Positions 2,054-45,487 are shown, numbered from the stretch's first letter. The stretch: DNA of 64,000 nt from Candidatus Omnitrophota bacterium (GCA_016928875.1 JAFGJY010000019.1:1996-65995), one strand, 5' to 3'. Numbers and translations are program-made. The notes: generated from the letters alone by a model not told the origin.

Positions 2054-2251
2054 TCATAAGGTTGGATTACTGCCGGAACCACATGCGTTTATCCCCACCG
2101 CCCCCGTTCCATTCCCACAAGATCCAGTGGCGCTCCCACCAGGAAATGTACCATTTGAACAGAATTTTGCAGGTTCTATCTGCCCGATCAATTCATCATC
2201 GGTGCAAATAGCACTGATCTGAGGTGAAATATATTCCTTTTTTCGCGGCAT
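2054..2251 (-). CDS. putative RiPP precursor peptide P1 (Cys/Gly-rich core, KK-Y-x-x-P-x-I leader family)
   Basis: 65 aa MPRKKEYISPQISAI... leader shared with four other small ORFs; the core has 5 Cys in a G/S/T/N-rich context; it sits directly downstream of an HprK-like kinase gene. Confidence 0.6.
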   Translation of the reverse strand: MPRKKEYISPQISAICTDDELIGQIEPAKFCSNGTFPGGSATGSCGNGTGAVGINACGSGSNPTL

Positions 2252-2305
2252 TCCTATCTCATTTTCTCGTTATTCCTGATTTAAACACATTTTAATACTA
2301 AAAAA

Positions 2306-3322
2306 CTAATTAAGCAAAGAAGAAATAATACCCCAAATATCGCTTGTTTTACCGAGCCCCAAATTAAATGTGGGCGTTGCCCGTAAACAATCAGTAAAAA
2401 GTGCAAAGGCATGCGCGATCCTTTTAGGGTCTTTTTTATGTACCAATCGAAAGGGCTCGGCCATCATGTAAATTGACCTTAGATTTTGTAGATCCCCCAG
2501 ATCTGCTTTCGTAAGGATGGGCTTATTATTTTTATGTAAAATAAATATCGCCTTTAATGTATTTGGTTGTATTGAAGAAATAATATATGAATCCCTATTG
2601 GATGGTATTCCGTTATCATAAAAAAAAAGGTTCGGGTCACCCACCGTAAAACTATCATTTTTTGTGTTCTGAAATATCCGCGTTGTGTCATCAGATACCT
2701 TGCAGATTTCTGCCTTCTCGCTTACAAGCCGGTCAACGCTCGTCGATTTCCCTGCCCCCGATGGGCCGAGGAATAAAATACTTTTCTGACGATACACAGC
2801 CGATGAGGCATGGATGTGAATATAATTAAGATCGACAGTTAGGCTTGATAGGATCGGATACAATGCGGTCAGTTTATGATCTTCTGAGGGTTGTTTTGAG
2901 TGTATGTTATTGTTATGCGCCGTATCTCCCATTACGTATTGTGCCGCTTGATACACGTGAAATGAACCATCAGTACATTTCATGATAAAATAAGACCGTT
3001 TGTTTTCGCTGTACCACAACTCGATCTCTGTGTTGTGATCTTTTATAAAATTAAACGTCCGAGAAAAAACGCGGTCTGTTCCATCGGGGTCGAACATACG
3101 CCATCGCCCGTCATTATCAGCATTAGTATGCAAGCCCCGCATCAGGTCATTGTCGATCCGGTAAAAATAAACGGTATATTCACGCTGATAAGAATGGATC
3201 GTTACATAAAAAGGCGCTACAGTAATAACACCTTTCTTATCCTTAATTAAATTAGCAGATCGGGGCACCGACCTGTGCGCGCATATGTGCATACGACTAT
3301 CTTCCCCCCTCCCCTCAAGCAA
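2306..3322 (-). CDS. HPr kinase-related P-loop kinase-like protein (RiPP-associated paralog 1)
   Basis: Walker A GPSGAGKST followed by the ..SDD..I block typical of the HprK C-terminal domain (compare GESGVGKSE...VADDRVEI); paralogous to 11437-12393, 41551-42636 and 43240-44346; the true start may be an internal Met. Confidence 0.6.
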   Translation of the reverse strand: MLEGRGEDSRMHICAHRSVPRSANLIKDKKGVITVAPFYVTIHSYQREYTVYFYRIDNDLMRGLHTNADNDGRWRMFDPDGTDRVFSRTFNFIKDHNTEIELWYSENKRSYFIMKCTDGSFHVYQAAQYVMGDTAHNNNIHSKQPSEDHKLTALYPILSSLTVDLNYIHIHASSAVYRQKSILFLGPSGAGKSTSVDRLVSEKAEICKVSDDTTRIFQNTKNDSFTVGDPNLFFYDNGIPSNRDSYIISSIQPNTLKAIFILHKNNKPILTKADLGDLQNLRSIYMMAEPFRLVHKKDPKRIAHAFALFTDCLRATPTFNLGLGKTSDIWGIISSLLN

Positions 3323-3408
3323 TCATTTACTTCAATTGTGATAATTATTATATCAACAATGATCCCACAACAAATCTGGCATGGCCCTACCAAGCATCTT
3401 GTAACGGG

Positions 3409-4485
3409 TCACAGCATTGATCGTTCCTTTATAGCTTCATGTATCGCTTCCGCAACACATCTCTGTCCCAACGCTGTGTAATGTCCATCCTCCAATGTAA
3501 TATCTTCAAAGGCATGTTCTTTAAGAAACCGATCGAACGCCGGGCTGATGTCGAGCCATTGCAAACCGGCTTTCCTGACAGCATTTGACATTACTGCTTT
3601 AACCTGATGGGAAATTCGTTTCCCAACAAAATCGACCCCACTGGGCAAATAGGCAAAAACAACTTCTCGGTCATGCGACAAAGCGAGCGCTCCGATATCA
3701 GCAACGATCGCGTCGATAACAGCTGTTACCGCAACGTTTGTCGGATCAAACTCAGATCTCAGTCGAGCTATCCTTTTTCTCGCGATGAATTCAGCCATTT
3801 TGACCACATGTAACGATCGCAATGACTCAACGATCAATATTGGTATATCCGGCGACAGAAAAAAAAGTGGTTTGCGCGGTGCTTTCGCGACACATACCGT
3901 GTTATCATTGTCGATACCGAGAACTGGTTTCGGATAGCCTAAAAATGTGCCGGATAGCATCCGCTCGATATCATAACAACTGATCGCAATGATCGCCATT
4001 GCGTGTTCAAACTTCTCATTATCGCGCATGTACCACAGATACATCTGATCAAGCCCATATCCTGACATACCCATATTGATCGCCTCGATCTTCGTATCGA
4101 GCTTTTCAAGCTCGACAGGCCATGTTTCATGATCATTAACTCCGAATCCCATGGTGTACGAATCACCGACACACACGACCCTGAATTTACCGGGCGGAAT
4201 AGAACGTGAATATTCCTGCGTTGCCCGTAATCCTTGTTGATTTACCGTAATACCAACGCCACGACGAAAACAATTCGGTTTATGAATACCCGGGATATGC
4301 CTCCATCCAAGCAACGGATCGAACTCAGTGTGGATCCGCTCTCGCACTGTACGCATTGGGCTATGTATGAAATGTGATCCGGCGATCATCACCCCAGCTA
4401 TTCCTTCAATGATGATAAGCATGATGATGACCAACAGTATGGTAATACCGATAAATGTAAGCGATCTCCTCACCCAACGCATCAT
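3409..4485 (-). CDS. SGNH/GDSL-family hydrolase, N-terminal membrane anchor
   Basis: N-terminal TM helix; VVCVGDSYTMGFGV block (GDSx motif). Confidence 0.5.
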   Translation of the reverse strand: MMRWVRRSLTFIGITILLVIIMLIIIEGIAGVMIAGSHFIHSPMRTVRERIHTEFDPLLGWRHIPGIHKPNCFRRGVGITVNQQGLRATQEYSRSIPPGKFRVVCVGDSYTMGFGVNDHETWPVELEKLDTKIEAINMGMSGYGLDQMYLWYMRDNEKFEHAMAIIAISCYDIERMLSGTFLGYPKPVLGIDNDNTVCVAKAPRKPLFFLSPDIPILIVESLRSLHVVKMAEFIARKRIARLRSEFDPTNVAVTAVIDAIVADIGALALSHDREVVFAYLPSGVDFVGKRISHQVKAVMSNAVRKAGLQWLDISPAFDRFLKEHAFEDITLEDGHYTALGQRCVAEAIHEAIKERSML

Positions 4486-5873
4486 CGCACCATCCCCTCT
4501 CGCCTCTCACGCACGATCTTTTCGCAGGCCGTAATGCCGTCAAGCAATGCCTCGTCCATATTACAATACATGAAAATCCCCGCTCGTCCGATACAATGCA
4601 GGTTCTCGAATGATCGCACGTGGTCAAGGACGATGTCGCGGTCAGCGTTGTATCCAATGTGGTACATCGGATACGCGTGAGGATACCGCACAACGAACCC
4701 GGTCACGAGATGCCGCTGGCAATCAAACCCGATCTTGCCCATCTCGGACAATGCATGTTCGATCAGGTCAATATCCCCCATCGACCACAATGCATCGTCG
4801 TCGCCGCAGAAATATTCAAGTCCCAGTGTCGATTTATTCTGGTCGATCACCATCGATGAGCTCCAATTCTTGTAATTCTGGATACGGGCAAGCTTGACCG
4901 ACGGGTCGTGGACATAGATCCACTGGTCAGGAAAGACATCACGCATATTCACGATCACATTGACGACCATGTAATGCCTGAATGAAAGTCGCTTAGACGC
5001 TTCAATGACCTTATCCTCCGGGTGTGGGTCCAATACCTCAGTAAATAGTGGTAACGGGATAGATGATACCAAAGTATCGACCGGCACATAGTGCACAGCA
5101 CACGCTGAGCGGTCAAGCAATGAAATACCGATAACCCGGCCATGATCGTGATGCACGCTTTTAAGTTCGTGACGCAGGTGAAACCGCGCGCCCTGTGCTT
5201 CTGCTGTAACACGCAACCGTTCGCATAATTGTCCGGGGCCTCTGCGAGGATATTTAAAGATCTCGTAAAGGTTTTTCTGTGTCTCTGAAGTATTAGGCCA
5301 TAATGCTTGTTGGAGCGCAACGCGCAGCGAAAGCCCTTCAATACGTTGCCGAGCCCAGTCCTCTGAGATCTCATCACACGCTATGCCCCACAGTTTTTCC
5401 GTGTACCCCTTAAAAAATGTCTCGTACAGCCGTTTTCCGAATTTCGCGCTGACATAATTCTCGAAATTCTTGCATTGAGGGTGTTCGTCCGCACCTCGTG
5501 ACGTGATAGCTATTAAGTAACTTGAAAAACAACGTGCTGCTTCGATGATCCCGAGATTCTTAAGTGTATTGCCAAGCGTCAGTGGATAATTGAAATACCG
5601 ATTGCGGTAATATATCCGCGAAAGCCGACGCACCTCGAGCATGTCCTTACCCATGATCCGCGAACACAGCTCATCGATCGCACGGTGTTTCGTAAGGAAT
5701 CGATGTCCGCCAATGTCGAATAAATACCCATGATGATCGATCGTACGGCACAGTCCCCCCACAGCATCATGGTGCTCGTAAACATCGACAGCGGCACCGC
5801 CCTCGGATGCGGCAAGCGCGCACCCTAACCCTGCCGGCCCGGCACCGATTATCGTAATGTGTTGTTTGTTCAT
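4482..5873 (-). CDS. FAD-dependent oxidoreductase (amine-oxidase/PPO-like Rossmann)
   Basis: N-terminal IIGAGPAGLGCALAAS...GG dinucleotide-binding motif; 463 aa. Confidence 0.6.
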   Translation of the reverse strand: MNKQHITIIGAGPAGLGCALAASEGGAAVDVYEHHDAVGGLCRTIDHHGYLFDIGGHRFLTKHRAIDELCSRIMGKDMLEVRRLSRIYYRNRYFNYPLTLGNTLKNLGIIEAARCFSSYLIAITSRGADEHPQCKNFENYVSAKFGKRLYETFFKGYTEKLWGIACDEISEDWARQRIEGLSLRVALQQALWPNTSETQKNLYEIFKYPRRGPGQLCERLRVTAEAQGARFHLRHELKSVHHDHGRVIGISLLDRSACAVHYVPVDTLVSSIPLPLFTEVLDPHPEDKVIEASKRLSFRHYMVVNVIVNMRDVFPDQWIYVHDPSVKLARIQNYKNWSSSMVIDQNKSTLGLEYFCGDDDALWSMGDIDLIEHALSEMGKIGFDCQRHLVTGFVVRYPHAYPMYHIGYNADRDIVLDHVRSFENLHCIGRAGIFMYCNMDEALLDGITACEKIVRERREGMVR

Positions 5874-10035: not shown

Positions 10036-10275
10036 TTAAATGCCTGTATACGTCAGTGGCGTGCCGCCGGCCGTGCAATTGTGCGGATCTAACCCTGGGT
10101 TGCAATTGCCCCAATAAAAAGTACTTCCCGATTTGCAACCGAACGGAGAGGCGATCACCGTGCCATTAAAACACTCAGCGCTTGCGTTGTTGCCATTACC
10201 GCAAGCAGCTGCATCGACATAACTGGGAGCAGCTTCAAGCATAATTTTTGGCGTTGCATATTGTTTTTTATTCAT
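10036..10275 (-). CDS. putative RiPP precursor peptide P2 (KK-Y-x-x-P-x-I leader family)
   Basis: 79 aa MNKKQYATPKIMLE..; core AACGNGNNASAECFNGTVIASPFGCKSGSTFYWGNCNPGLDPHNCTAGGTP.. with 6 Cys. Confidence 0.65.
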   Translation of the reverse strand: MNKKQYATPKIMLEAAPSYVDAAACGNGNNASAECFNGTVIASPFGCKSGSTFYWGNCNPGLDPHNCTAGGTPLTYTGI

Positions 10276-10342
10276 ATTTTCTTCTTCACGGTGACTTGAT
10301 TATACGGCATTATGTCATGTGTCTCAAGAAATATATTACCGG

Positions 10343-10529: not shown

Positions 10530-11432
10530 TCAATACCCGGCAAACAATCCTCGTAGGTTCTCATGCTGGATCATTTTAGCAGGTCCTCTTTGGATACTTT
10601 TTACGAAGCAATTACAATCAAGAACTGAATAAGAATATTTCCTCCTTAATGCCTCTTCCATGATATCGTACACTAATCCATTATCGTACAAGTGCATTTC
10701 GTGGCATTGATAGATCTCAGCATCAGGTAATATTTTTGCGATTTTGCGGCGATTATATTGAGTTACTTCTATTTCACCTATATTTACATGATCTACGCCG
10801 ATATCCTCAATAATGGGCAACATCTCGAAGAGCTTTGTTTTATGCGGAGGCCATGCCGGTGTTTCAACGGTTAGCGCTTTAAAATACTTCCTGGCTAGGG
10901 ATACGTTTTTGTAAACGTCCTTTGAGAAATTTGATGCACCGAGATGAAACCGTATTTCATCAATGCCAAGGTCTCGGAGCTCCTCAAGTATATCTTTGGT
11001 CGCCAAAACTCCGTTTGTGTAAAGGTAAAACCACGGGCTTCCCTTAGTCTCCTTTTTGATATCATTGTACACCTTCATATATTCTCTAATGGTCTTCATG
11101 TACAAAAGTGGCTCACCGCCTCCGCTAAAACTGATCGAAGTTGGGCGATAATGAGGCTCACGCGATTCCCGTATTATTGACGTAATCGTATTGAGCAAGT
11201 CGATCTTTCCAGGTTCTTTCATTTTGTAAAAACAATAACAGCAATTGAGATTACACTTTGCTCCCGTAAGTAGATTGCGATGATATCTATCATAGACGAA
11301 ACAACTGCCGCACCCGGGAGAGATTTTTCCAATATGCACGCAATGTCCACTGGCGTGATATTGAAGCTCTTTGATGGCTTCCTGTCGCTTGAACTTTCTT
11401 GTGTATGCTTCTTGTATAGATAATAGTTTCAT
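10530..11432 (-). CDS. radical SAM protein (no SPASM domain seen)
   Basis: CNLNCCYC (CxxxCxxC) plus SFSGGGEPLL glycine motif; extra N-terminal Cys pair (GCGSCF); start taken at MKLLSIQEAY to avoid overlap with the kinase. Confidence 0.65.
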   Translation of the reverse strand: MKLLSIQEAYTRKFKRQEAIKELQYHASGHCVHIGKISPGCGSCFVYDRYHRNLLTGAKCNLNCCYCFYKMKEPGKIDLLNTITSIIRESREPHYRPTSISFSGGGEPLLYMKTIREYMKVYNDIKKETKGSPWFYLYTNGVLATKDILEELRDLGIDEIRFHLGASNFSKDVYKNVSLARKYFKALTVETPAWPPHKTKLFEMLPIIEDIGVDHVNIGEIEVTQYNRRKIAKILPDAEIYQCHEMHLYDNGLVYDIMEEALRRKYSYSVLDCNCFVKSIQRGPAKMIQHENLRGLFAGY

Positions 11433-11436
11433 CTCT

Positions 11437-12393
11437 TTAAATACGGCTTTCTGAGGATCGTGATAACTTCCTGACAAACGTAATTATGCTCTTGTCATTG
11501 ACAAATCCCAATCGGTAACACGGTACATTTTTTATTACATGCTGACATAATGAGGCAATGCTTTCTAACCCTTCCTTATCCCAGAACGTGGGAAACAATG
11601 CCGGATACAATAATTTAAATGCCTCTGCCCCGGAGACCTTCTCGGCAACATTTTTTGAAGAGTGATGAATGAAAAACAAGACATTAAGTCGGGCAGATTC
11701 TATCTTAGAGTCAAGATAATCGCTAAATTCGCCATGCCACGGAGAACCATAAATAACGAATGTTCCCGCTTCTTTACGCACAATGATCCGATCGTCATTT
11801 AAGACCATGGCTTTCGTGTGCTTATGCCACAGTCTCGCGGTCGTGGTTTTACCATCGCCTGATTTACCAGCGAAAACAAATCCTCTGCCATCAATATCTT
11901 TTACGCCGATAGCATGGGTGAATATACCTTGATTTCTTTGAGCAAGATAATTTATCAAAAGGATCTGCAAAAAGTCGTAAATGATGTCTGATGTTGTCCA
12001 CACATACCCTGCACTCTTTTTAGGCAATAGATATGCGGTTACTTTATCAAAGGTTTTATTCACTACCATAAGCTGCTTTTTATTCGCGAGTGGACAGGTA
12101 AAAATATAGCCCTTTTCGTTCTTAAATAATCTCCAGTTTTCACTGCCGTCCTCAAAATGGTATGTAACAAACAACCGTTTTTTCTTCGTTATTGCAGGCA
12201 GTTTATTAACGATCTTGATCTTAACATTGATGTGTGGTGTCCGGTTCCCCTTGCAAAAGAACTTCTCGTAGCGTTCAAGCCTTTGCTCTTGCTTGACTTG
12301 CTCTGTGAGCGTTTCGAGCGGGAAGCGGCTTGCAAGTCGAATAACCACATCAGAGATCTTTAACGTAATTGTTCCCTTTCCAGAGAGCTTCAT
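11437..12393 (-). CDS. HPr kinase-related P-loop kinase-like protein (paralog 2)
   Basis: FAGKSGDGKTT...VLNDDRIIV block homologous to the other three paralogs. Confidence 0.6.
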   Translation of the reverse strand: MKLSGKGTITLKISDVVIRLASRFPLETLTEQVKQEQRLERYEKFFCKGNRTPHINVKIKIVNKLPAITKKKRLFVTYHFEDGSENWRLFKNEKGYIFTCPLANKKQLMVVNKTFDKVTAYLLPKKSAGYVWTTSDIIYDFLQILLINYLAQRNQGIFTHAIGVKDIDGRGFVFAGKSGDGKTTTARLWHKHTKAMVLNDDRIIVRKEAGTFVIYGSPWHGEFSDYLDSKIESARLNVLFFIHHSSKNVAEKVSGAEAFKLLYPALFPTFWDKEGLESIASLCQHVIKNVPCYRLGFVNDKSIITFVRKLSRSSESRI

Positions 12394-16299: not shown

Positions 16300-16302
16300 G
16301 AT

Positions 16303-32587: not shown

Positions 32588-33015
32588 TTATTATCTCGTA
32601 CTTTCTTCCGAATAATACCATGCAACGGTTTAAATAGTGTAAGCAAGGGTGCTAATTCTACTATCGCCCGATTAATATATCTGTATCTGCGCTTCGTAAG
32701 ATCGATCATTGTATCATTTTTCAAAATCCCTACCACTTTACCTAATAACATTTCGTTAGTTATACATTCAGGCGCCGACGGAGAATTGTCCCCGCGGACA
32801 TAAAGATGGCTTTTTTTTGCGTCTAGGGACCTTCTTATTAAGCGATGGCAAACCATTTGATCGTTTATTCGATACAATATGATATCGCCGATCACTAGGT
32901 CCTTGAGAGACACTTTTTTGATCAGCAACTTTTGTCCTTGCCTCACAAATGGCCACATACTAAAGCCAATGGCATCAATAAAAATAATATTCTGAAAATC
33001 TCTATTTAAGCCCAT
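32584..33015 (-). CDS. S24/S26-family (signal peptidase I-like) serine peptidase
   Basis: 143 aa; nucleophile motif IGFSMWP (GxSMxP) and GDIILYR...VCHRLI block. Confidence 0.55.
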   Translation of the reverse strand: MGLNRDFQNIIFIDAIGFSMWPFVRQGQKLLIKKVSLKDLVIGDIILYRINDQMVCHRLIRRSLDAKKSHLYVRGDNSPSAPECITNEMLLGKVVGILKNDTMIDLTKRRYRYINRAIVELAPLLTLFKPLHGIIRKKVRDNK

Positions 33016-34817: not shown

Positions 34818-36455
34818 TTAAACATTTAACCTTGAAAATGTAAAGAGGTCATAGACCTTGAATGTCTTTTTTGCCGTTATAGCATAATTGCCATGGTGCT
34901 GCAACAGATCGAGCGGGAGAGCCTGGGAAGCTGTCATATAATAAAATGTCTCTACGCCGCGAGCATTGAACGTAGATAACATATCCGCAAACTCATCATT
35001 GTTCCGGGCAACAAGCATGCGGCGGTCAAAATACTTCAGCCCCGCGTGTTCGAACAATGAGTTCCTGGTAAAGACGATAATATCGCCGTCATCGGTAAAC
35101 TCTTCTATGAACGTTGTCCGTTCCGCATTGAGTTGCTTGAAATATAAGATATCGCAACGGAACCGAAATACAACGCATCCGATGGTCGCAATGCACAAAA
35201 AGATAAAGACCACGAATATGTTCTTTCTTTTAATAATATCTTCGAATCGTATGCCGATCGCGATCATAACAAAGGGGATCATGGGCAGAAGATAACGCAC
35301 ATTATTATCCGGGTTCCTATAAAATAATATTCCGACCAATGTCATGAAGATAATGAAAACGATGAAGAATAGCTTCAATAGCGTGTTCACATCGTACGCC
35401 CCGAAACGTTCTTGATCAGGTCCTTCCGCTTTGACGGCATAAAACCACAACAAGAAGATACTTAATGGATATTCGATGAACACGCGATCGGTCACTGACT
35501 CTTGCAGCAAAAGGACGATATATCCGCTCCACAGAAGTACGCATAAAAGATCGAATGATTGATCGCTCGATGATCTTCTTGAAGTCATTGATAACCAGAT
35601 CCATGTGCCTATAAATGCGATAACGACCACGAGTTTATCGAATTGGATAAAACGCGGCGGCGGATTGCACGTGACATGCAGTCCGAAGATCGTGCCGTAA
35701 AGCCATTGGTTAACTGCGCAATGTAGCCCAACAACAAAGCCCGTGCCCGCAACGATCGCTGCAACCTCCCGCCAGCGTTTCTTTAGAAGGAAGTATAGTC
35801 CCACCGGCCCCAAGAACGCCACGATAAGGCCGTAACATTCGGTCCGGAAGAAGATCGTCAGCGCTATGCATGCAGAACCGGCTACCATATAACGTATTTT
35901 CTTTGGATCATCATAAACAGAGCGTGTAAAGAGATACAGGCCCGTAACAAGAAAAGCAAGCAAAGGCACGTGGTCCCAAAACGTGATCGCGTATAAACTG
36001 GTCGGGTTTACACACACATAGATAATGGTCAGAATAAGGGCGTACTTCGGCTTGAGCAGGCGCATTATTTTATAAAAAAATAAAGCCCCGACCCAGAACG
36101 CGAGTAGGGGGAAAAACAGAACACACCGCTCCCCTAAAAACGGATAGAGAAAACTTGTCATAAAGGGCAATAATACTTGGTAGGAACTTATCAATCGGCC
36201 GTTATGCAATAACCATTTTCGGTGTGTACCTATGAATGTATATTCGGGATCCAGGTCTTTGGCAGGATAAACAAGCGACAACGACTTCCAATCATTGATG
36301 CAAAAACTTCGCATTTGGATGTATTTTATGCCGAAATCATCGGCATATAATCCGTTCGGGACGAAATGGTAACAGAGGACCAGAACGATCCCCAGCAACA
36401 CGAAGAACAACGTTGCATACGCACCCGCATTGAGTGCACCAGTTCTCTCTCTCAT
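34818..36455 (-). CDS. polytopic membrane protein, GT-C-fold glycosyltransferase-like (ArnT/PMT-like)
   Basis: 545 aa with more than 10 TM helices; DD motif (LYADDFGIKY) in the first extracytoplasmic loop as in GT-C enzymes; weak. Confidence 0.35.
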   Translation of the reverse strand: MRERTGALNAGAYATLFFVLLGIVLVLCYHFVPNGLYADDFGIKYIQMRSFCINDWKSLSLVYPAKDLDPEYTFIGTHRKWLLHNGRLISSYQVLLPFMTSFLYPFLGERCVLFFPLLAFWVGALFFYKIMRLLKPKYALILTIIYVCVNPTSLYAITFWDHVPLLAFLVTGLYLFTRSVYDDPKKIRYMVAGSACIALTIFFRTECYGLIVAFLGPVGLYFLLKKRWREVAAIVAGTGFVVGLHCAVNQWLYGTIFGLHVTCNPPPRFIQFDKLVVVIAFIGTWIWLSMTSRRSSSDQSFDLLCVLLWSGYIVLLLQESVTDRVFIEYPLSIFLLWFYAVKAEGPDQERFGAYDVNTLLKLFFIVFIIFMTLVGILFYRNPDNNVRYLLPMIPFVMIAIGIRFEDIIKRKNIFVVFIFLCIATIGCVVFRFRCDILYFKQLNAERTTFIEEFTDDGDIIVFTRNSLFEHAGLKYFDRRMLVARNNDEFADMLSTFNARGVETFYYMTASQALPLDLLQHHGNYAITAKKTFKVYDLFTFSRLNV

Positions 36456-36493: not shown

Positions 36494-36802
36494 TTATGAT
36501 TCGATCAGAAAACCGCTTTGTTTTAACTTTTCAATATGCTCATCAAGGTCTTTCTTTGCCTCGGCTTCACCGACCTCGTATTCATCAAGGATATTCTTTA
36601 AAAGAGTATCGATCGTTACCGGCTGTTCACATCTGTCCCAAATAAACCGTGCTGTTTCATTGATCACGATAAAATTCGCCGTATCCGCATTAAAGAGGAA
36701 TGTCTCATCCCCCTCATCACGCGTCACCACGTTTTCCGCATGTTTTAACTGCTTCTCTGACATGATCGTATTTCCTCCCTCAGCCTTTGTGGGGACAGAC
36801 AC
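36494..36802 (-). CDS. PqqD-family RiPP recognition element
   Basis: 102 aa; FLFNADTANFIVINETARFIWDRCEQPVTIDTLL matches the PqqD core. Confidence 0.7.
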   Translation of the reverse strand: MSVPTKAEGGNTIMSEKQLKHAENVVTRDEGDETFLFNADTANFIVINETARFIWDRCEQPVTIDTLLKNILDEYEVGEAEAKKDLDEHIEKLKQSGFLIES

Positions 36803-36826: not shown

Positions 36827-37294
36827 TTATTCTACTTCACATTGTGCGTGGTCTGTCTTCCTGAGCCGCGCATGCGACAATTTTCTATGCAACCACTTAA
36901 ACGGCGACAATGTCTTGATCCGCGCATATATTTTAGAATTATTCAAGAAAACGAACAATTTCTGTGCCCGCTTTATAAATCTTCCACTATCTTCGATCGG
37001 TATCTCATCTGTGCCGCGGTATGCCGCGATGACCTTCCCTTTTATCTTATCATACGGGACACGGAAGGCATCGGCTTGCACCAGTGTCGAATCCGGTTTT
37101 GTCATCAGTGAACCATCGGGGTTTATCGACAATATCCTATGGGTTATCAACTTCGAATTATCACTGTTTTCAAAGACGACAATATCGCCTATTGCGAACG
37201 TCACATAGTCGGCTTTCTTGATCAACAGCGCATCGCCGATCTTAAGCAGCGGCTCCATGCTGTTACCGATAAGTTTGGCGGACATGTATTTCAT
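36827..37294 (-). CDS. S26-family signal peptidase I-like serine peptidase
   Basis: 155 aa; canonical GNSMEP nucleophile motif, then GDIVVFE and ITHRIL blocks. Confidence 0.65.
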   Translation of the reverse strand: MKYMSAKLIGNSMEPLLKIGDALLIKKADYVTFAIGDIVVFENSDNSKLITHRILSINPDGSLMTKPDSTLVQADAFRVPYDKIKGKVIAAYRGTDEIPIEDSGRFIKRAQKLFVFLNNSKIYARIKTLSPFKWLHRKLSHARLRKTDHAQCEVE

Positions 37295-37477: not shown

Positions 37478-38581
37478 TTAGATACTGACCTTTTTGTATT
37501 TAAACTTCTCCGGAAACAGGCCCAACCTATCCGCTTCCTCGCAAAAATAGAACGGAGCCAAAAGGTCGCCATGGGAATAAAAGGCCTCTGCCCTGCATTT
37601 GCCGAGACAAAAGTTCTTGAACATACACTCCCCGCAGATGCCTTGCAGCTTGCTCGGGAGGTCACTGCGCAATGTTTTCAGTATTGCAGAATCGTGCCAT
37701 ATTTCTTTTAAAGAGCGTTCATGGATCGTGCCCAATAAAAGTTCAGGCGTACTTGCCCCGATACCGCAGATCGACATGCGGCCATCGGCCAAAACCCCGA
37801 GAATATTAAATATTCCACATCGCCCTTTATGCCTGCTTTTGGCCGGGAAGAAAGAGAACACGGGTGGTATGTCGAAGATCATGGCTACCTTTATCTGAGG
37901 CTGGACTTCTTCATCGATCACTTTTTTAATATCCAAATAATCCTTGACCGAAAGAACATCGTTTGAAGCGGCCAAACTTTTTCCGCGTTCAATATCGTTG
38001 ATACAATTGAGCTTCAGACTTGCCGCACCCAGCGACTGCGCCAGACGCGCCGTCTCTAAAATATATCGGACGTTAGGCCGGTAAAGAGACATGATCACCT
38101 GCGGCCTAAATCCCCGCTCGGCACATATTTTTACGCCGCGGCATGCTTTGTCGAATGAACCCGGCACCCCGCGCAACGCTTCGTGTATCTCCGCCGTAGG
38201 ACCGTCGATGCTTATCGAAATATGCGAAAGCTTCATCTCTTTAAAGAAATCTCCCGTCTCATCATCGATCAAAATGCCGTTGGTTTCCATAGTCATATAC
38301 AGGTTCTTTTCTTTGGCATACTTCATGAGCGGTCGTGTATGCAGACTTAAGAGCGGTTCTCCGCCGGTAAATTTTATGCTTTGCAGACCGAGCGGGATGG
38401 CTTGATCGATTATGGTGGTAAAGGTTTCGTACGGAGCTTCCTCCGGCGCTGTCGTTGCATCGAGATATTCAGGGGCTATCCAGCAATGTTTGCACGCACA
38501 ATTACAATACGACGTCATGTAAAAATATAACATGCCAAGTGGCGGAGTATTTGGTGCAAGGTCAAGGACACGTTCGTTCAT
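37478..38581 (-). CDS. radical SAM/SPASM domain peptide-maturase-like protein
   Basis: CNCACKHC, FTGGEPLL, SPASM CGECMFKNFCLGKC. Confidence 0.8.
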   Translation of the reverse strand: MNERVLDLAPNTPPLGMLYFYMTSYCNCACKHCWIAPEYLDATTAPEEAPYETFTTIIDQAIPLGLQSIKFTGGEPLLSLHTRPLMKYAKEKNLYMTMETNGILIDDETGDFFKEMKLSHISISIDGPTAEIHEALRGVPGSFDKACRGVKICAERGFRPQVIMSLYRPNVRYILETARLAQSLGAASLKLNCINDIERGKSLAASNDVLSVKDYLDIKKVIDEEVQPQIKVAMIFDIPPVFSFFPAKSRHKGRCGIFNILGVLADGRMSICGIGASTPELLLGTIHERSLKEIWHDSAILKTLRSDLPSKLQGICGECMFKNFCLGKCRAEAFYSHGDLLAPFYFCEEADRLGLFPEKFKYKKVSI

Positions 38582-39627
38582 AATGTGTTAAAGACCTCCT
38601 CTTTAATGCAATATAATTTTTTGTTCATGAACTTCCCTGGATTATGATATGGTTGACAGCGATGGCCAAGATAACAGAGCCGCAAATATTCACAGTTCAC
38701 ACACTCAGCTATCTCTTCGGCTTGTAGGTAAGCAGGTTCACGGAATTGATTCATCACCGGTGAATTGAGCCAAATATCTTTAAGCGAGGTTTCATAAAGG
38801 TCGCCGGCCACACAATCCCAGATTATCTCGCACGGGACGACTTTCCCGTCGGGACGGATGGCACACTGTTTCATCGCTGCCCCGCAGGGACTGACCATGA
38901 GCGGAAATTCAAATGTTGGCGGTGCCTCGCGTAATTTATCCAAGATCTCGACTTGCGTCATAACAGAACCCGTTATTGCATTTTTATATTTTTTGTTCAG
39001 TTCACGTACAACATCGAGCGATTGAAAGGTTTCTGCCGGCGTCATCAGTATTTGGTCGGAATAACAGGCGGCATTGCCGACATAGCACACATTGTTGAAA
39101 CGAATACTGTTAATGCCAAGCTCGCACGAAAGTTTATACATATTTTCAATATCGTGGTAATTGAATTTGGTCAGGATCGCAGACAGCGTAATGCCCCTCT
39201 TTATGCGTTTGATCTCTTCGATACCGCGGATCACCTTATCGAACGAACCCTGGCCGCGAAACGCGTCATGTACTTCGGCGCACGATCCGTCAATGCTGAT
39301 GCAATATGATCTGATCTTCGAACGTGCAAGCCAATCAGCTTCTTCACGATCGATCAATGTTCCGTTAGTGTTCACGCTTATCGTCAGCGGACATTTCCCC
39401 AGTTCCTCGGCAACAAAATGAAAATGTTCGGACATGAATGGCTCACCGCCGAATATCGAAACACTGAAGATCTTCATATCGCGTATCTGATGAATGATAT
39501 TGAGGAGCATTTCACGAGAAAATTCACGGCAGCCTGTCGTGCTGCTCGCCAGACAGTGCTTACAGGCTAAATTACACTTATTGGTTATACCGAAACTGAT
39601 ATTGTGCGGCGCGCTTAAAGTCTTCAT
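38578..39627 (-). CDS. radical SAM/SPASM domain peptide-maturase-like protein
   Basis: CNLACKHC, IFGGEPFM, SPASM CVNCEYLRLCYLGHRC; translationally coupled to 37478-38581. Confidence 0.8.
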   Translation of the reverse strand: MKTLSAPHNISFGITNKCNLACKHCLASSTTGCREFSREMLLNIIHQIRDMKIFSVSIFGGEPFMSEHFHFVAEELGKCPLTISVNTNGTLIDREEADWLARSKIRSYCISIDGSCAEVHDAFRGQGSFDKVIRGIEEIKRIKRGITLSAILTKFNYHDIENMYKLSCELGINSIRFNNVCYVGNAACYSDQILMTPAETFQSLDVVRELNKKYKNAITGSVMTQVEILDKLREAPPTFEFPLMVSPCGAAMKQCAIRPDGKVVPCEIIWDCVAGDLYETSLKDIWLNSPVMNQFREPAYLQAEEIAECVNCEYLRLCYLGHRCQPYHNPGKFMNKKLYCIKEEVFNTL

Positions 39628-39765: not shown

Positions 39766-40959
39766 ATGGTACCATACCGCAAAGACCTGACCGAAAAACT
39801 TCTGATGTTCATCATGAAACATGATGCGCGCGATCTTATTTCTGCAGACGCCCTTGAGCATACTGACTGGAGCACATTCCTGCCGTTCGTGCGCTATCAC
39901 GGTTTACATAGCATGTTGTACCCGCTGCTCAAGCCCTTTCGTGAGCATATCCCCCATGTGCATTACGCTAGTTTTCATAAATCGTATTTTCAAGCGATCG
40001 CATTCAATGTGCGGGCAAAAGGATCATTTATGAAGATCAAAGATCTTTTTGACGGGAACGGTATCCAACTCGTACCGCTTAAAGGTATGGCGCTCATCTT
40101 CGATATTTATTCCTCGCATCCCTCGCGGCCAATGTGCGACCTTGATATCCTGATCACAGATAGTGATTACGAACGAGCGAAGGATCTTCTTAAGCAGATC
40201 GGATACATTAAAAATGTCTCTGATGATAGTGAACACTACTGGCGCAATGAACAGATGCACGTGAGCTTTGGTCCGAGAGACGGTACATTACCATTGTGTA
40301 TACTTGAGATGCACTGGCAGCTTGATTACACGCGCAAGTATCCCCTTTTGTCTGATCTCTGGCACCGCGTCCGGACTATCCCTGATGAAGGCGATGAAAT
40401 TGTGACCCTCTCGCCGGAAGATACACTGTTCTCGCTGGCACTACATCAGCGAAGGTTTGGTGCGCCACTCCAACTTAAGTATGCGTTTGATACGGCGTTG
40501 CTCTTTAAAAAGTATGAGAATAGTATTGATATTGATTATCTTATAAGTGAAGGCCGCAGGTCGCGGATACGATCGGCCCTGTATGCCCTCGTCAAGCAAT
40601 GTTCTTTTTTTTACTCTGATACGTCGGTTGAAAGATTACTAAAGGAATTACACATCTCAACGCTACGCAAGAACTGCCTGGACGCAATGATCAAAAAGAA
40701 CACATTTGAAATACAGAACAACACAAAGCAGCTGTTTGCCACCCTGCATCTGTTCCTCTTTGATAGCTGGAACGAACCATTATTCTACATGCTGAACATA
40801 CCCTATGTGCAGTTCTGCAAATATTACGGTCTTCTCCCCGGGCAGAAATATTCCCGCTTCTTGTACTCTCTCCGTTATTTTTACTATGGAATTGGGCTGA
40901 TACAATTAGGTGTGCAAAAGCTGTGTTTTTTACTACGGGGCGAAGCGGAGAAAAGATGA
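39766..40959 (+). CDS. nucleotidyltransferase-fold family protein (RiPP-cluster associated)
   Basis: PLKGMALIFDIY...CDLDILI matches the pol-beta NTase G[SG]x(n)DxD motif; the family is known next to HprK-like kinases in lasso-peptide clusters. Confidence 0.5.
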   Translation: MVPYRKDLTEKLLMFIMKHDARDLISADALEHTDWSTFLPFVRYHGLHSMLYPLLKPFREHIPHVHYASFHKSYFQAIAFNVRAKGSFMKIKDLFDGNGIQLVPLKGMALIFDIYSSHPSRPMCDLDILITDSDYERAKDLLKQIGYIKNVSDDSEHYWRNEQMHVSFGPRDGTLPLCILEMHWQLDYTRKYPLLSDLWHRVRTIPDEGDEIVTLSPEDTLFSLALHQRRFGAPLQLKYAFDTALLFKKYENSIDIDYLISEGRRSRIRSALYALVKQCSFFYSDTSVERLLKELHISTLRKNCLDAMIKKNTFEIQNNTKQLFATLHLFLFDSWNEPLFYMLNIPYVQFCKYYGLLPGQKYSRFLYSLRYFYYGIGLIQLGVQKLCFLLRGEAEKR

Positions 40960-40980: not shown

Positions 40981-41210
40981 TTACAAAGGAAATAGTAACG
41001 GGCCGGCCCCGCCGATACAATCATTAGGCGAAGGACCTGCCGTACAGCTACCAAAAGAGTATCCTACCTCACAAAACCCAGGATGCATGATCGAATTATT
41101 AGTGTTCCATGCGCCGCTCGCAGCATTACCGTGGCCACATGCTAAACATGAGCCGGATACCCTTGGTTATATTCAAAAACTTGTGGCGCAGTATAATGTT
41201 TTTTCGATAT
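40981..41210 (-). pseudogene. decayed precursor gene of the KK-Y-x-x-P-x-I family (start lost, 1-nt frameshift)
   Basis: The minus strand reads ..SKKHYTAPQVFEYNQGYPAHV* then, in the +1 frame, CGHGNAASGAWNTNNSIMHPGFCEVGYSFGSCTAGPSPNDCIGG..*; the DNA aligns to P3 (41228-41473) with ATG changed to TCG and a 1-nt deletion. Confidence 0.6.
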
Positions 41211-41227: not shown

Positions 41228-41473
41228 TTATATCGCGGGCCATACTTGCGGCGAATCACCGGCGGTGCAATTATTAGGGCTACCGCCGGAAGTACAATTC
41301 CCGAACGAATACCCTATGGTGCAATAGCCGGGATAGGCGATTGAATTCCCAATACTGCATGTACCGCTCGCTGTACTCCCCAGGCCACAAGCATATGCAT
41401 CTGCCGGATGCCCTTGGTTATATTCTATGATCTGTGGTGGGCTATAATCTTTTTTATTTTTCATTATTTCCAA
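41228..41473 (-). CDS. putative RiPP precursor peptide P3 (KK-Y-x-x-P-x-I leader family)
   Basis: 81 aa MEIMKNKKDYSPPQIIEY..; core with 6 Cys, ..NCTAGDSPQVWPAI. Confidence 0.65.
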   Translation of the reverse strand: MEIMKNKKDYSPPQIIEYNQGHPADAYACGLGSTASGTCSIGNSIAYPGYCTIGYSFGNCTSGGSPNNCTAGDSPQVWPAI

Positions 41474-41550: not shown

Positions 41551-42636
41551 TTACCGATCTCCATGATCAAGTTTGTTTACTAGATCGTTAAAGTCATCGC
41601 TGAGATCTGCTTTTAACGGGAATTTAAGTTCATAAGAAGGAATACCTGTAGCAATGTCGGCTAGCATATTAAAATAGAAGCTATTACTCTCACGGTCGGC
41701 ATTCATTGCCATAAGCTGTAATGGTTGATCGTAAAAAAGGAAACGACTGAGAGCATCACGCACATCGATGGGCGTTGCTTTTAAAACATCTGATTTCTCA
41801 AGGAAGAATATATATTTGATCGGAAATGAGCGTGATACCATGTCGGCGCTCATACTTCCCTGCTTGTACTCGTTCCACCATGGCGTTGCAACCGCAGAAA
41901 ATCCACCCTGTTCATCGGTCACAATGATACTGAGATCGTCACTCAGACCCCTGTACTTTTTAAGTGTTTTTACGATCGTTGATTTCCCATCGCCTCCCTT
42001 GCCTAAAAATACATACCCTGCCCCCTCACGAGCACACGAAGCCGCATGCATAATGACACCTTTTCGAGCGGCCATAAGTGATGTCCTGAATATCTCGTAC
42101 AGCGCTTGAACGCGAACTAAATGCTGTACTTTTATCTCAAGCGGGTCTGCTTCACCAATGATCAAGCGGAACATGAACCCGCACCGCTGTTGCTTGCAAA
42201 AAAAGCTCAACACTGCGCCGGACGAGACAACCGTCGCATCTTCAGTCTTTACTCCATCCAGAAGTACCTCAAAAAGCTGTGGGTGTGCGTCAAAATACGC
42301 CGCAAAAAAGAATTTAAACGTATCCTCGAGGCAATCTTTGGGATTATTGTACAGTAATACGATCTTCTTCTTAAGCAGCGTGATAAACTCGTGATACTTG
42401 GCTGGTAATCTTTCCCGTCGCGCTTCCACTAAATATTCTATGTAATAATTATAGTCGTTCTCTTCTTCTTGGACCACAGGATACTGTGCGAACGGTGTGT
42501 AGTCTAATATCATGCCTATTTCAGCCTTGCGGCTCACATCAAAATGGATGTTAACGCAGATGCCTGCTATACATACTCTCACCCTATCGAACTGCCGTTT
42601 TTTGAATAGACTATCATGCGATATCATACCATTCAT
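41551..42636 (-). CDS. HPr kinase-related P-loop kinase-like protein (paralog 3)
   Basis: VIMHAASCAREGAGYVFLGKGGDGKSTIV..LSDDLSIIV. Confidence 0.6.
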   Translation of the reverse strand: MNGMISHDSLFKKRQFDRVRVCIAGICVNIHFDVSRKAEIGMILDYTPFAQYPVVQEEENDYNYYIEYLVEARRERLPAKYHEFITLLKKKIVLLYNNPKDCLEDTFKFFFAAYFDAHPQLFEVLLDGVKTEDATVVSSGAVLSFFCKQQRCGFMFRLIIGEADPLEIKVQHLVRVQALYEIFRTSLMAARKGVIMHAASCAREGAGYVFLGKGGDGKSTIVKTLKKYRGLSDDLSIIVTDEQGGFSAVATPWWNEYKQGSMSADMVSRSFPIKYIFFLEKSDVLKATPIDVRDALSRFLFYDQPLQLMAMNADRESNSFYFNMLADIATGIPSYELKFPLKADLSDDFNDLVNKLDHGDR

Positions 42637-42838: not shown

Positions 42839-43087
42839 TCAGTAAACGACGTTGCTACCAAAAGAACAATAGCCTGTTGCAGCAGTGCCGGCCTCGCACA
42901 GCGAAGGGGCGAATCCTGTGTTACATATGTTATTAGCAGCCGTACCAGTACCGCAAGCAGTGCTAGCAGCGCCACCGGAGTTGCACACCCCAATGACGCC
43001 TGATCCGGGATCACAGAGGCCAACACCTTCAGAATCAGAGGGGGGATTAAAAAATGCTATTTGTGGTTTTAAATATGGTCGCTTCAT
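42839..43087 (-). CDS. putative RiPP precursor peptide P4 (KK-Y-x-x-P-x-I leader family)
   Basis: 82 aa MKRPYLKPQIAFF..; core with 7 Cys in a G/S/T/A-rich context. Confidence 0.65.
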   Translation of the reverse strand: MKRPYLKPQIAFFNPPSDSEGVGLCDPGSGVIGVCNSGGAASTACGTGTAANNICNTGFAPSLCEAGTAATGYCSFGSNVVY

Positions 43088-43239
43088 ATATTCAATTCAT
43101 TGTATATTCCTAGAAATGCTTACTCAAATGTTTGTATTATAAATAGTTATAATAATATGTCAATGTATCTTTAACTACGCGCCCGCATTTTTTGAACGCC
43201 TGCTGATTACGGATTACGGGATCTGTTATCTGGGTATAT

Positions 43240-44346
43240 TTACCGTAAATTCCCCTTTATTTTCTCAAAGGCATCTGACAGGTCTTCGGTAATTGGGAAT
43301 TCAAGCTCGTAACACGCACATCGTCGTGTCAGCGTTCGTAAGAAATCAAAATAAAAAGCAATGCTCTTTTTATCTGTGGAAATTCCCTGAAAACGAAATG
43401 GCGAGTCATCATAAAGAAAGCGCCTCATCGCATCGCTTCGGGAAAGAGGGATCATTGCCAGTTTCGTTGCTTTTTTAAGAAAGAAAACATGGCGCAATAC
43501 GTTATCAATGCAAACTTCATGTGCCCTACCCTTACGGGCAACCACATCATCGTTATTCCACAACGATGGAGCGAGCATAAAATCTCCCTTATCCACAGGA
43601 TTTAATACTATGCTTACGTCATCGCTTAAGACATGATATCCCTTGAGACTGTTAATGATCGTCGACTTCCCTCCTCCTCCTCTGCCCATAAAGAGGTTCG
43701 CATCATTACTTTTAAGATTGGATGCACCATGGAGCATAATGCCTTTTCTCTCACCTGCAAGCACGGTTCTTGTGATCATATATAACATTTCCATGCCGGC
43801 TCGACGGTCATAATGGTCAGTCCCCTCATCGGCAGGTGGCACAACAGACAACACGATCCCCACTTTTGCACGTGGGCAGTAGAATACTATCATGATCGAC
43901 GATACGCACATATAGCAATCGCCGTCCAGCAGGATCTTTTTGATCACGTTGAAAATATGGGGGTATTGATCAAAATACGAGGCAAGGTACTGACGCATTA
44001 GTGAATCTCCCTTGATGCATCTATTTCGGTCAAAGTACACAATATTCTTATCGAGGTACGTTAAGATCGTACGATAGTCCGAGTTCACATTGCTAACGTC
44101 AGATCGACGCAGAAAACACAGGTAATAGTCCGCACCGCTTACTACATATCTTGTAGGATCGCTCTGTGTATTCGTACATGCTTCTTTAATAAACGACTGC
44201 TCAACGAAACCATTGTCGTTAGGATCGAATCGTAAGGTTGCATGGATGTACCCCATCTTAAAATACAAGCTAGATGTGAATGTGCTATTGAGAAGCTCTT
44301 TATTCAAACTAGTATCCTTACCGTTAATGATATTTGCATTCATCAT
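43240..44346 (-). CDS. HPr kinase-related P-loop kinase-like protein (paralog 4)
   Basis: GIMLHGASNLKSNDANLFMGRGGGGKSTII..LSDDVSIVL. Confidence 0.6.
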   Translation of the reverse strand: MMNANIINGKDTSLNKELLNSTFTSSLYFKMGYIHATLRFDPNDNGFVEQSFIKEACTNTQSDPTRYVVSGADYYLCFLRRSDVSNVNSDYRTILTYLDKNIVYFDRNRCIKGDSLMRQYLASYFDQYPHIFNVIKKILLDGDCYMCVSSIMIVFYCPRAKVGIVLSVVPPADEGTDHYDRRAGMEMLYMITRTVLAGERKGIMLHGASNLKSNDANLFMGRGGGGKSTIINSLKGYHVLSDDVSIVLNPVDKGDFMLAPSLWNNDDVVARKGRAHEVCIDNVLRHVFFLKKATKLAMIPLSRSDAMRRFLYDDSPFRFQGISTDKKSIAFYFDFLRTLTRRCACYELEFPITEDLSDAFEKIKGNLR

Positions 44347-44457
44347 GTTATTTTCTGCAAAAGGACATAACGAATACTATCAGTAAAGATGAGTTTTGCC
44401 CCGATCTTATTTAATATGAATTCAAATGTCCTTATGGTATAAAATGAAATATGCGTT

Positions 44458-45166
44458 TCATCGCGTATATACTACTATTTCAGGAAATGATTGTCGAACG
44501 CTGTTCTTACCATCCTCCTGATAAGGTGTTTTGTACGCATAGGGGTTCCCGGCATTGATACGTACCAATGACATATCATCAGCAAGACAACAATTCGGCT
44601 CGAGAGTTCGAGCGACCGTTGGTTTACCCTGGTCCGCTGGCCCCCAAAGCAAAGTGTGCTTTACCATTTATTACAACCGCTGCCCCATGCATAAGCAACA
44701 GGTCTATTGTGTGGCATGCAACAAGTCTTACCATATCTTTTATTGTTGCCGAATAGAGACATTCACAGTTCATGGAGTTTTGAGATCGCAGTCGGTATAG
44801 TGGCATCATTCCGGAAGGTATGTGATACGTTATGAATTGATCAGGGTAAACATGCACAGCCTAGGTATTGTCGTTGACAGTGTATACCCGTTGTGCTGGG
44901 TTACGTGCGGCGAGGAGATCATAGCGATCGTTCAAAGAAACACTGGTATTGTTCCTTGCGCATAAAATAACTTCTTCTAGCCTGTCAAATGAGAACGCTT
45001 CATTATTGAAACAATCGATATCCTCGATCCTTACCGTAATGTATTGGTCATGGTCGCCAAAATGATCATTTCTTACATAAAGTGCACGGTGCCGTGCATC
45101 ATGCTCATTCAAATTTATGAGAAAGCTATCATGACTGGAAGAAAAAGCAATACCGGCTGATGACAA
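44458..45166 (-). pseudogene. HprK-like kinase pseudogene (in-frame TAG at 44861-44863 plus a frameshift; C-terminally truncated)
   Basis: ORFs 44861-45166 and 44624-44857 share one frame, separated only by TAG; the second ends ..LLLMHGAAVVINGKAHFALGASGPG (P-loop). The third ORF, 44458-44667, in a shifted frame, continues GKPTVARTLE..LADDMSLV, homologous to the GKST..LSDD..I block. Confidence 0.6.
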
Positions 45167-45229
45167 TTATCTTATTATAATCGATTTAAGAACATAGATA
45201 AATGAAAATAAATAATAATGCAAAGCTGC

Positions 45230-45487
45230 TCATACCGGATATGGCGCCGGAGAACCGCCAAAAACACAATCATTCGGCTTAGCGCCCCACGTACAACTTC
45301 CAAACGTCCCCCCTTGCTCACAAAAACCGGAGATTGCAGTTCCGATAACAGTGCCGTTCATACATGTACCAGATGCAGAACTCCCGCCTCCACATGCGTC
45401 TGCGTATGCAGAAAATGAGTCACCATATTCTAATATAGTTGGTTGAGAATATTTTTTTTTCATAGCGCCTAAACGATTTACTTTCAC
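45230..45487 (-). CDS. putative RiPP precursor peptide P5 (KK-Y-x-x-P-x-I leader family)
   Basis: 85 aa MKKKYSQPTILEY..; core ADACGGGSSASGTCMNGTVIGTAISGFCEQGGTFGSCTWGAKPNDCVFGGSP. Confidence 0.65.
   Translation of the reverse strand: MKVNRLGAMKKKYSQPTILEYGDSFSAYADACGGGSSASGTCMNGTVIGTAISGFCEQGGTFGSCTWGAKPNDCVFGGSPAPYPV

Follow-up and report, generated by a model that had tools for sequence, protein, structure and literature searches.

Among the gene clusters for peptides that are ribosomally synthesised and then modified post-translationally (RiPPs), the SynChlorMet (SCM) cassette brings together, in single copies, a precursor peptide (ScmA, TIGR04252) and the proteins ScmC (TIGR04249/PF27840), ScmD (TIGR04248), ScmE (TIGR04250) and ScmF (TIGR04251). 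This cassette type has been catalogued bioinformatically for years and its chemical product is uncharacterised; its product, its linkage chemistry and the role of its kinase-fold protein are unpublished as far as we found, since a literature search returned no paper on these subjects or on the cassette itself (coverage was incomplete, and the absence is not proof). A search on kinase-linked ranthipeptides and on SPASM enzymes combined with PqqD and HPr kinase likewise returned no relevant paper. Other described systems have comparable components. Sactipeptide and ranthipeptide pathways (SCIFF/CteB, PapB/freyrasin, SkfB, AlbA) use a Cys-rich core, leader-dependent radical S-adenosylmethionine (SAM) enzymes with a SPASM domain, and a PqqD-type RiPP recognition element (RRE), and pairs of a Cys-rich core with a SPASM enzyme have mostly proved to yield thioether peptides of these two kinds. 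Phosphorylated and phosphoglycosylated lasso peptides (paeninodin, PadeK; pseudomycoidin, PsmK/PsmN) come from clusters that combine a Y-x-x-P leader, a PqqD protein, an HPr-kinase fold and a nucleotidyltransferase, and the HprK-related kinase A/B and GeoRSP systems (TIGR04352, TIGR04355, TIGR04302, TIGR04303) associate HprK-like, PqqD and radical-SAM/SPASM proteins. This article describes a 64,000-nucleotide stretch of a metagenome-assembled genome (MAG) of Candidatus Omnitrophica (Omnitrophota) (GCA_016928875.1, JAFGJY010000019.1:1996-65995, one strand; hereafter the window, with positions counted from its first nucleotide), in which six short open reading frames (ORFs) are probably ScmA-type RiPP precursors belonging to a divergent, expanded SynChlorMet-like cassette, for which a route of maturation is proposed. 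Five of the ORFs are intact (A1, A2, A3, B and C) and one is a pseudogene (Table 1).

All five SynChlorMet gene types are co-located in the window, where the interval 36.5-45.5 kb contains precursor, ScmC-, ScmD-, ScmE- and ScmF-type genes; the top NCBIfam matches of the neighbouring proteins are ScmC, ScmE and ScmF, and the gene order is that of metagenomic SCM-like loci. The sole curated peptide family to be matched was ScmA (TIGR04252), by 23 of the 41 members of the wider peptide family described below. When the window peptides were compared by hhalign with ScmA-like peptides, the two sets aligned in register (98.5%, E=3.9e-15), with the caveat that the ScmA-like set had itself been retrieved with the window profile. 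The models of SCIFF (TIGR03973), sactipeptide, ranthipeptide, lanthipeptide and other characterised precursors in NCBIfam and Pfam remained unmatched by the window peptides even at E<=10, a comparison that had been proposed in an earlier note on this DNA. That note had read the ORFs as RiPP precursors tied to radical-SAM/SPASM and HprK-like genes and lying outside SCIFF and the known sactipeptides and ranthipeptides, all of which stands; its suggestion of an undescribed RiPP class does not, because the peptides match the catalogued ScmA.

The five intact minus-strand ORFs and the broken copy all translate as had been reported, and tblastn comparisons between them (A1/A3 4e-20, A1/B 6e-15, A3/B 1e-15, A2/C 1e-6, A3/pseudogene 9e-20) give a similarity far beyond chance, by which they form a true paralogous family. 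In paralogue pairs the synonymous sites are saturated (proportion of synonymous differences, pS, 0.64-0.87), so that dS is not estimable, and the corresponding nonsynonymous proportion (pN) is only 0.31-0.51, which indicates that the peptide sequence was conserved long after the DNA had been randomised. A regular expression for the leader motif was found five times against a mononucleotide-shuffle mean of about 1 (maximum 4), which is not strongly above expectation, and the significance of the family therefore rests on the similarity statistics. An exhaustive HMMER scan of 1.84 billion representatives, a profile search of the kind the earlier note had envisaged, returned 45 matches at E<=1e-3, among them about 40 peptides, 53-137 aa long, that share this arrangement of leader and core; a word-indexed homology search with the peptide profile recovered the window's own peptides only, which reflects a limit of sensitivity and is not evidence of absence.

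The leader consensus of this family is K/R-x-Y-x-x-P-x-[ILV], the Y-x-x-P motif being present in every window copy, and the core consists of 3-10 repeats of about 10 residues each, with the form C-x-x-G-[SGT]-x-[AP]-x-x-x. In the alignment of 41 members the modal Cys spacing is 10, Gly occupies position +3 in 96% of repeats and Ala or Pro position +6 in 67%, while Ser or Thr is found at +4 in 46% and at +5 in 37%. Leader Tyr and first core Cys are a nearly fixed distance apart, 18-21 residues in 37 of 40 peptides, and 7 of 43 peptides, namely A1, A3, B and those closest to them, have A-x-A immediately before the first Cys. The window copies had been credited with 5-7 core Cys about 7-11 residues apart; these figures need correction to 4-6 (five in A1, A3 and B, six in A2, and four in C together with one leader Cys) and to a measured spacing of 9-14, with a mode of 10.

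The same associations recur elsewhere. The closest non-self peptide (P0006, locus L001), an A3 orthologue, is encoded immediately downstream of the gene for a protein that shares 50% identity with ScmC1, and a JGI contig carrying two family peptides (P0009 and P0010) has a methyltransferase, a protein annotated PF27840:ScmC, a peptide, an opposite-strand PF14907 gene and a second peptide, which is the order in the window. Eight metagenomic loci with ScmF relatives (about 40% identity) contain PqqD, ScmE, ScmF and a peptide in that order, with an S26 peptidase and ScmC on the opposite strand. The cassette arrangement with all of its component types is found again in L005 and L010-L015, and PF14907 is present in L015 as well. 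In L010, L011 and L014/L015 the leaders carry W-x-x-P-x-[IL] followed by 'DALP...G.C' in place of Y-x-x-P, and the peptides, encoded directly after ScmE-ScmF, gave no match to the curated ScmA model at E<=0.001. Thus, across unrelated metagenomes, these peptides travel with PqqD, ScmE and ScmF types, ScmC and an S26-type peptidase. Within the window, the reported proximity of every copy to an HprK-like kinase gene holds for each intact copy, to within about 1.2 kb, with the qualification that the neighbour of A1 is a decayed gene; as to the radical-SAM genes, C is 8 kb from the nearest one, with polysaccharide genes in between.

The ScmC-like proteins form a set of paralogues. On the curated ScmC model (TIGR04249, cutoff 125 bits) the window paralogues score 69.3, 32.6 and 14.1 bits, and a precomputed Pfam record assigns PF27840 (ScmC) to the product of 41551-42636. 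Three features are shared by the four intact paralogues and two metagenomic relatives: an invariant His, the P-loop GxGK[ST]T and, downstream, DD. In the AlphaFold (AF2) model of ScmC1, residues ~180-360 are confident (predicted local distance difference test, pLDDT, 80-93) and the N-terminal half has a pLDDT below 50; the only significant Foldseek matches of this model in the PDB were phosphoenolpyruvate carboxykinase (PEPCK) and HprK/P (1kkl_B, TMt 0.49). A PDB profile search with ScmC also matched HprK/P (E=1.5e-3) and PEPCK over the stretch from the P-loop to the DD. The C-terminal half of ScmC is thus predicted to have a PEPCK/HprK kinase fold. Homologues were hard to retrieve with ScmC itself: word-indexed searches with ScmC1 and with the ScmC alignment returned essentially self matches (a sensitivity limit), neither ScmC1 nor a three-sequence ScmC alignment found anything when the genome collection was scanned, and in the metagenome scan the ScmC alignment found nothing and the ScmF query alone was productive.

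The remaining enzymes agree with a radical-SAM pathway. ScmE and ScmF both possess the CxxxCxxC motif and C-terminal SPASM auxiliary Cys clusters, and their closest solved relatives are PqqE, SkfB, SuiB, CteB and anSME, all of which are peptide-modifying SPASM enzymes and all of which match with similarly weak scores; CteB, SkfB, PapB and AlbA are likewise weakly homologous. Judged by its genes, the locus resembles a sactipeptide or ranthipeptide pathway in its working parts, and its gene content places it with the SynChlorMet cassette. It departs from the former in having a separate RRE protein instead of an enzyme-fused one, a regular 10-residue CxxG repeat and a kinase-fold partner. It departs from the latter in copy number, with five precursors and a pseudogene, and four ScmC genes and a decayed one, in place of single copies; in its PqqD protein, which scores higher on lasso-type PqqD models (lasso_PqqD_Bac 37.9 bits, cutoff 80) than on ScmD (TIGR04248, 26.2 bits, cutoff 100); in its Omnitrophota host; and in extra genes for PF14907, a methyltransferase, a putative glycosyltransferase, two S26 peptidases and two ATP-binding cassette (ABC) exporters. 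With the phosphorylated lasso systems the locus has in common the Y-x-x-P leader, the lasso-like PqqD, the HPr-kinase fold and the nucleotidyltransferase, and its ScmC proteins share with PadeK-like kinases the PEPCK/HprK P-loop fold, the catalytic His, GxGK[ST] and DD. Unlike those systems, it has no detected lasso cyclase or B2 protease, its peptides lack a C-terminal Ser, and its class-defining enzymes are radical-SAM/SPASM proteins. As for the HprK-related kinase and GeoRSP systems, HprK_rel_A/B models weakly match the ScmC paralogues and GeoRSP models weakly match the PqqD and radical-SAM proteins, in all cases far under the cutoffs and lower than the scores on SCM models.

These components suggest a sequence of maturation steps. 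The PqqD protein would bind the Y-x-x-P leader, in the manner of lasso and other pathways that depend on an RRE, and present the core to ScmE and ScmF, which would introduce one radical-mediated cross-link per ~10-residue repeat; by analogy with sactipeptides and ranthipeptides, the cross-link is most likely a Cys thioether. The ScmC paralogues, of which there is roughly one per precursor, may use a nucleoside triphosphate to phosphorylate Ser or Thr of the core, and the PF14907 nucleotidyltransferase and the methyltransferase could provide further tailoring. The leader would be cut by the S26-type peptidase, in A1, A3 and B after the A-x-A directly before the first Cys, a motif that would fit signal-peptidase-type cleavage in that subfamily only, and two ABC half-transporters would export the product.

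Several observations weigh against this assignment or against parts of the scheme. All NCBIfam SCM scores of the window proteins fall under the curated cutoffs, for which reason the locus is not filed as a strict SCM member. On the ScmA model itself (TIGR04252, cutoff 35 bits), A3 scores 18.6 and A2 14.2 bits, and A1, B and C have no match. In this respect a peptide retrieved with the window profile, P0022, is informative: it is followed by a ScmC that passes the TIGR04249 cutoff (239.6 vs 125 bits) and scores only 18.7 bits on the ScmA model, about the same as A3, which shows the curated model to be narrower than the ScmA family itself. In L002 and L003 the gene after a family peptide encodes a ScmE orthologue with 68% identity to that of the window (a 68%-identical orthologue adjoins peptide P0007), and neither ScmC nor PqqD was detected in the 12.6 kb examined. 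Neither protein is therefore universally required, and the central maturase is probably the ScmE-type enzyme, with ScmC in an accessory role. Precursors B and C are separated from the main cluster by 30-40 kb, each with its own ScmC/HprK-like paralogue, in a neighbourhood that differs from that of ScmE and ScmF. The A-x-A junction is confined to its subfamily. The thioether is assigned by analogy, and the closest solved SPASM enzymes catalyse several different reactions. In lasso pathways an HPr-kinase homologue phosphorylates the C-terminal Ser of the precursor, and in pseudomycoidin a nucleotidyltransferase adds hexoses onto the Ser phosphate (PMC8498205); the C-terminal residues of the five intact peptides of the window are I, V, I, Y and L, and the site modified by ScmC must accordingly differ from that of the lasso kinases. 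The precursors, finally, are predictions from genes.

The variety among SPASM enzymes bears on the alternative in which the precursors and cassette are as described and ScmE and ScmF make other radical products, such as C-C or C-O cross-links, epimerised residues, or formylglycine or thioaldehyde derived from Cys. The solved relatives include PqqE and SuiB, which form C-C cross-links, and anSME, which oxidises Cys or Ser, beside the thioether-forming SkfB and CteB, and the conservation of two distinct SPASM enzymes in the cassette suggests two different reactions. Set against this, Cys is the sole invariant side chain of the repeat apart from Gly, and the precedent for Cys-rich cores favours thioethers; we regard this alternative as rather unlikely. 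An explanation that gives the leading part to the kinase would have ScmC phosphorylate the Ser or Thr at +4 or +5, elimination generate a dehydro-amino acid and Cys add to it, as in lanthipeptides, with the radical-SAM enzymes being secondary. The pairing of each precursor with a kinase-fold protein that has an intact P-loop and DD speaks for such a route, as does the frequency of Ser and Thr at those positions. These residues are nevertheless variable, Pfam and NCBIfam scans detected no lyase or LanC-like cyclase domain in the window, and the L002/L003 peptide is accompanied by a ScmE orthologue and no ScmC, all of which makes a lanthipeptide-like route improbable.

Still less weight can be given to lasso-peptide precursors or a degenerate lasso cluster. 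One Y-x-x-P leader weakly matches the lasso_cyano leader model (E=0.019), the top NCBIfam match of the PqqD protein is the lasso PqqD chaperone, and tailoring genes known from lasso pathways include both an HprK-like kinase and a PF14907 nucleotidyltransferase. Pfam and NCBIfam searches over nearly all window ORFs of at least 280 aa found neither an Asn-synthase-like lasso cyclase nor a transglutaminase-like B2 protease across the 64 kb, however, the cores are 45-60 aa of Cys repeats, and the conserved partner in other genomes is the radical-SAM/SPASM pair; lacking cyclase and B2 protease, the lasso interpretation was rejected. It is equally hard to credit that the ORFs encode unmodified small secreted or structural Cys/Gly-rich proteins, or arise by chance. 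Two of the five are not called by NCBI and their composition is of low complexity, yet leader and core stay in register across about 40 homologues, the synteny with maturases is tight and recurrent, promoters are predicted for three copies, and the protein is conserved over saturated synonymous sites. The ScmA-type assignment with radical-SAM/SPASM maturation is therefore preferred.

Table 1. Features of the SynChlorMet-like locus and associated genes in the window.
Feature	Position	Strand	Remarks
Precursor A1	45230..45463	-	77 aa, MKKKYSQPTILEY..., 5 core Cys; Logan call only (P0003), no NCBI gene call
Precursor A2	42839..43087	-	82 aa, MKRPYLKPQIAFF..., 6 core Cys; in neither protein collection searched
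Precursor A3	41228..41464	-	78 aa, MKNKKDYSPPQIIEY..., 5 core Cys; identical to P0001
Precursor B	10036..10275	-	79 aa, MNKKQYATPKIML..., 5 core Cys; identical to P0002
Precursor C	2054..2251	-	65 aa, MPRKKEYISPQISAI..., most divergent copy; identical to P0004
Precursor pseudogene	40981..41210	-	No start codon, post-leader stop, 1-nt frameshift, core in other frame
ScmC-like protein 1 (ScmC1)	41551..42636	-	TIGR04249 69.3 bits (cutoff 125); predicted PEPCK/HprK-fold P-loop domain in C-terminal half
ScmC-like protein 2 (ScmC2)	43240..44346	-	TIGR04249 32.6 bits; 31% identical to ScmC1
ScmC/HprK-like protein 3 (ScmC3)	11437..12393	-	HprK_rel_B E=5e-5; E=1e-10 to ScmC1; near precursor B
ScmC/HprK-like protein 4	2306..3322	-	55 nt upstream of precursor C
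Decayed ScmC-like gene	44458..45166	-	101-aa N-terminal relic ORF and frameshifted P-loop/DD fragments; 41 bits, local ScmC hidden Markov model
Methyltransferase C-terminus remnant	44352..44495	-	Two in-frame stops; 52% identity to 45530-46189 product
SAM-dependent methyltransferase (Methyltransf_23)	45530..46189	-	Head of operon
PF14907 (NTP_transf_5) nucleotidyltransferase	39766..40959	+	136.9 bits; opposite strand
ScmE-like radical-SAM/SPASM	38578..39627	-	Best match TIGR04250, 166 bits vs cutoff 400
ScmF-like radical-SAM/SPASM	37478..38581	-	Best match TIGR04251, 337.4 bits vs cutoff 400
S24/S26 signal-peptidase-like protein	36827..37294	-	Candidate leader peptidase; homologues in other SCM-like loci
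PqqD-family leader-binding (RRE) protein, ScmD equivalent	36494..36802	-	PF05402 56.4 bits
LA_3751/LA_3752-family putative glycosyltransferase	34818..36455	-	189.1 bits vs cutoff 200
Two ABC exporter genes	33025-34791 and 30824-32587	-	Fused transmembrane and nucleotide-binding domains (TMD-NBD); flank second peptidase
Second S24/S26 peptidase-like protein	32584..33015	-	Between the two ABC exporter genes
Radical-SAM enzyme	10530..11477	-	SPASM domain not detected; between ScmC3 and precursor B
Sigma-70 perfect consensus	43136..43163	-	TTGACA-16-TATAAT, 12/12; 49 nt upstream of A2 ATG
Sigma-70-like site	45490..45518	-	TTGACA-17-TATTAT, 11/12; 27 nt upstream of A1 ATG
Sigma-70-like site	10299..10327	-	TTGAGA-17-TATAAT, 11/12; 24 nt upstream of B ATG

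The main cluster is a minus-strand operon running from 46.2 to 30.8 kb, in which the methyltransferase gene is followed by A1, the decayed ScmC gene, the methyltransferase remnant, ScmC2, A2, ScmC1, A3 and the pseudogene, and then, past the PF14907 gene on the plus strand, by ScmE, ScmF, an S26 peptidase, PqqD, the glycosyltransferase, an ABC exporter, the second S26 peptidase and the second ABC exporter (Table 1). The interval between A1 and ScmC2 is made up of relics, namely a frameshifted ScmC-like P-loop/DD region (44458-44857), an ORF that is probably its N-terminal remnant (44861-45166) and the methyltransferase piece at 44352-44495. The decayed precursor copy had rightly been recognised as such: it has no in-frame start, a stop past the leader and a frameshift of 1 nt, and its Cys-repeat core is complete in another frame (40981-41166). 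Together with the gene relics, this pseudogene suggests that methyltransferase-ScmC-precursor units were duplicated in tandem and decayed, and birth-and-death of the duplicated units is clear. Two candidate identifications in this region were discarded: 39766-40959 (+) is not a transposase gene, its product being a PF14907 nucleotidyltransferase with synteny on another contig, and the 101-aa ORF at 44861-45166 does not encode the PqqD/RRE protein, since it gave no PqqD signal, and suits the N-terminal part of the decayed ScmC gene better.

The best sigma-70-like sites of both regions scanned are on the correct strand and directly 5' of precursor genes; the total number of such sites is not above shuffle expectation, and it is the position of the top sites that matters. 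Their placement also bears on translation starts. The ORF translations reported for A1 and A3 hold, and their starts are likely the ATG codons at 45463 and 41464 instead of the upstream GTG or TTG that had been assumed; for A1 the promoter-like -10 element at 45490 would leave little room in the transcript for a GTG at 45487. The NCBI names of the window proteins span locus tags JW938_01475 to JW938_01670, and with A2 absent and A1 called only in Logan, from the upstream GTG, two intact precursors out of five seem to be missing from the MAG's public annotation.

The GC content is 0.38-0.45 over ~2-46 kb (one bin at 0.50) vs 0.47-0.53 in the flanks (1-2000 and 46001-64000). This low-GC block starts past a PabB-type gene and ends at a tRNA-Asp/tRNA-Val pair (46571-46740, -), and it may be a horizontally acquired island that carries both peptide clusters and the polysaccharide genes. 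The genes between C and B (3409-9316, -) encode a GDSL esterase, a flavin adenine dinucleotide (FAD) oxidoreductase, Wzt/Wzm-like ABC transporter components and two GT2 glycosyltransferases. A further minus-strand operon at 10530-25353 is exceptionally rich in enzyme genes and contains three radical-SAM/SPASM genes and genes for a B12-radical-SAM C-methyltransferase (TIGR03975-like), a MiaB-like methylthiotransferase, two peptidase-U32/UbiU-like proteins, a QueG/RDH-like ferredoxin protein and a tetratricopeptide repeat (TPR) protein, together with a paralogous pair (12415-13284 and 16303-17205) whose products are 37% identical and have no family match. The occurrence of U32/UbiU-type enzymes within a RiPP-like cluster is unusual. 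A PqqD-like ORF at 25757-26044 (-; PqqD 39 bits, ScmD 36.6) precedes an 83-aa ORF at 25494-25745 with a K-F-K-P-E-I leader and a Cys/Trp/His/Tyr-rich core that is unrelated to the ScmA-like family and has no NCBIfam match, which looks like a second, different precursor heading the 10.5-25.4 kb radical-SAM operon.

RiPP clusters of this sort are frequently turned up by genome mining; the hybrid toolkit of this one is unusual. The locus is an unusually complete and readable SCM example, with several promoter-bearing precursors and genes for maturation, tailoring, leader removal and export, and the clear rules of its repeats (Cys at 10-residue intervals, Gly at +3, a near-fixed distance from leader to core) make it a good template for heterologous reconstitution. 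Most of the peptide family is missed by the curated ScmA model, and its roughly 40 relatives were seen only by exhaustive profile search, so that under-annotation of SCM-type clusters is probable, above all in uncultured phyla, Omnitrophota among them. A bolder proposal, which we put forward tentatively and consider doubtful in its entirety, is that the product would belong to a RiPP type not characterised so far, a string of radical-SAM-cross-linked decapeptide (CxxGxxAxxx) macrocycles phosphorylated by an HprK-fold ScmC dedicated to its precursor, with the phosphate then glycosylated or nucleotidylated by the PF14907 enzyme. If this were true, the N-terminal domain of ScmC would determine specificity for each precursor and so account for the layout of one ScmC per precursor, and the leader, RRE, kinase and nucleotidyltransferase toolkit of lasso peptides would be a portable module that has been recruited by a radical-SAM pathway.

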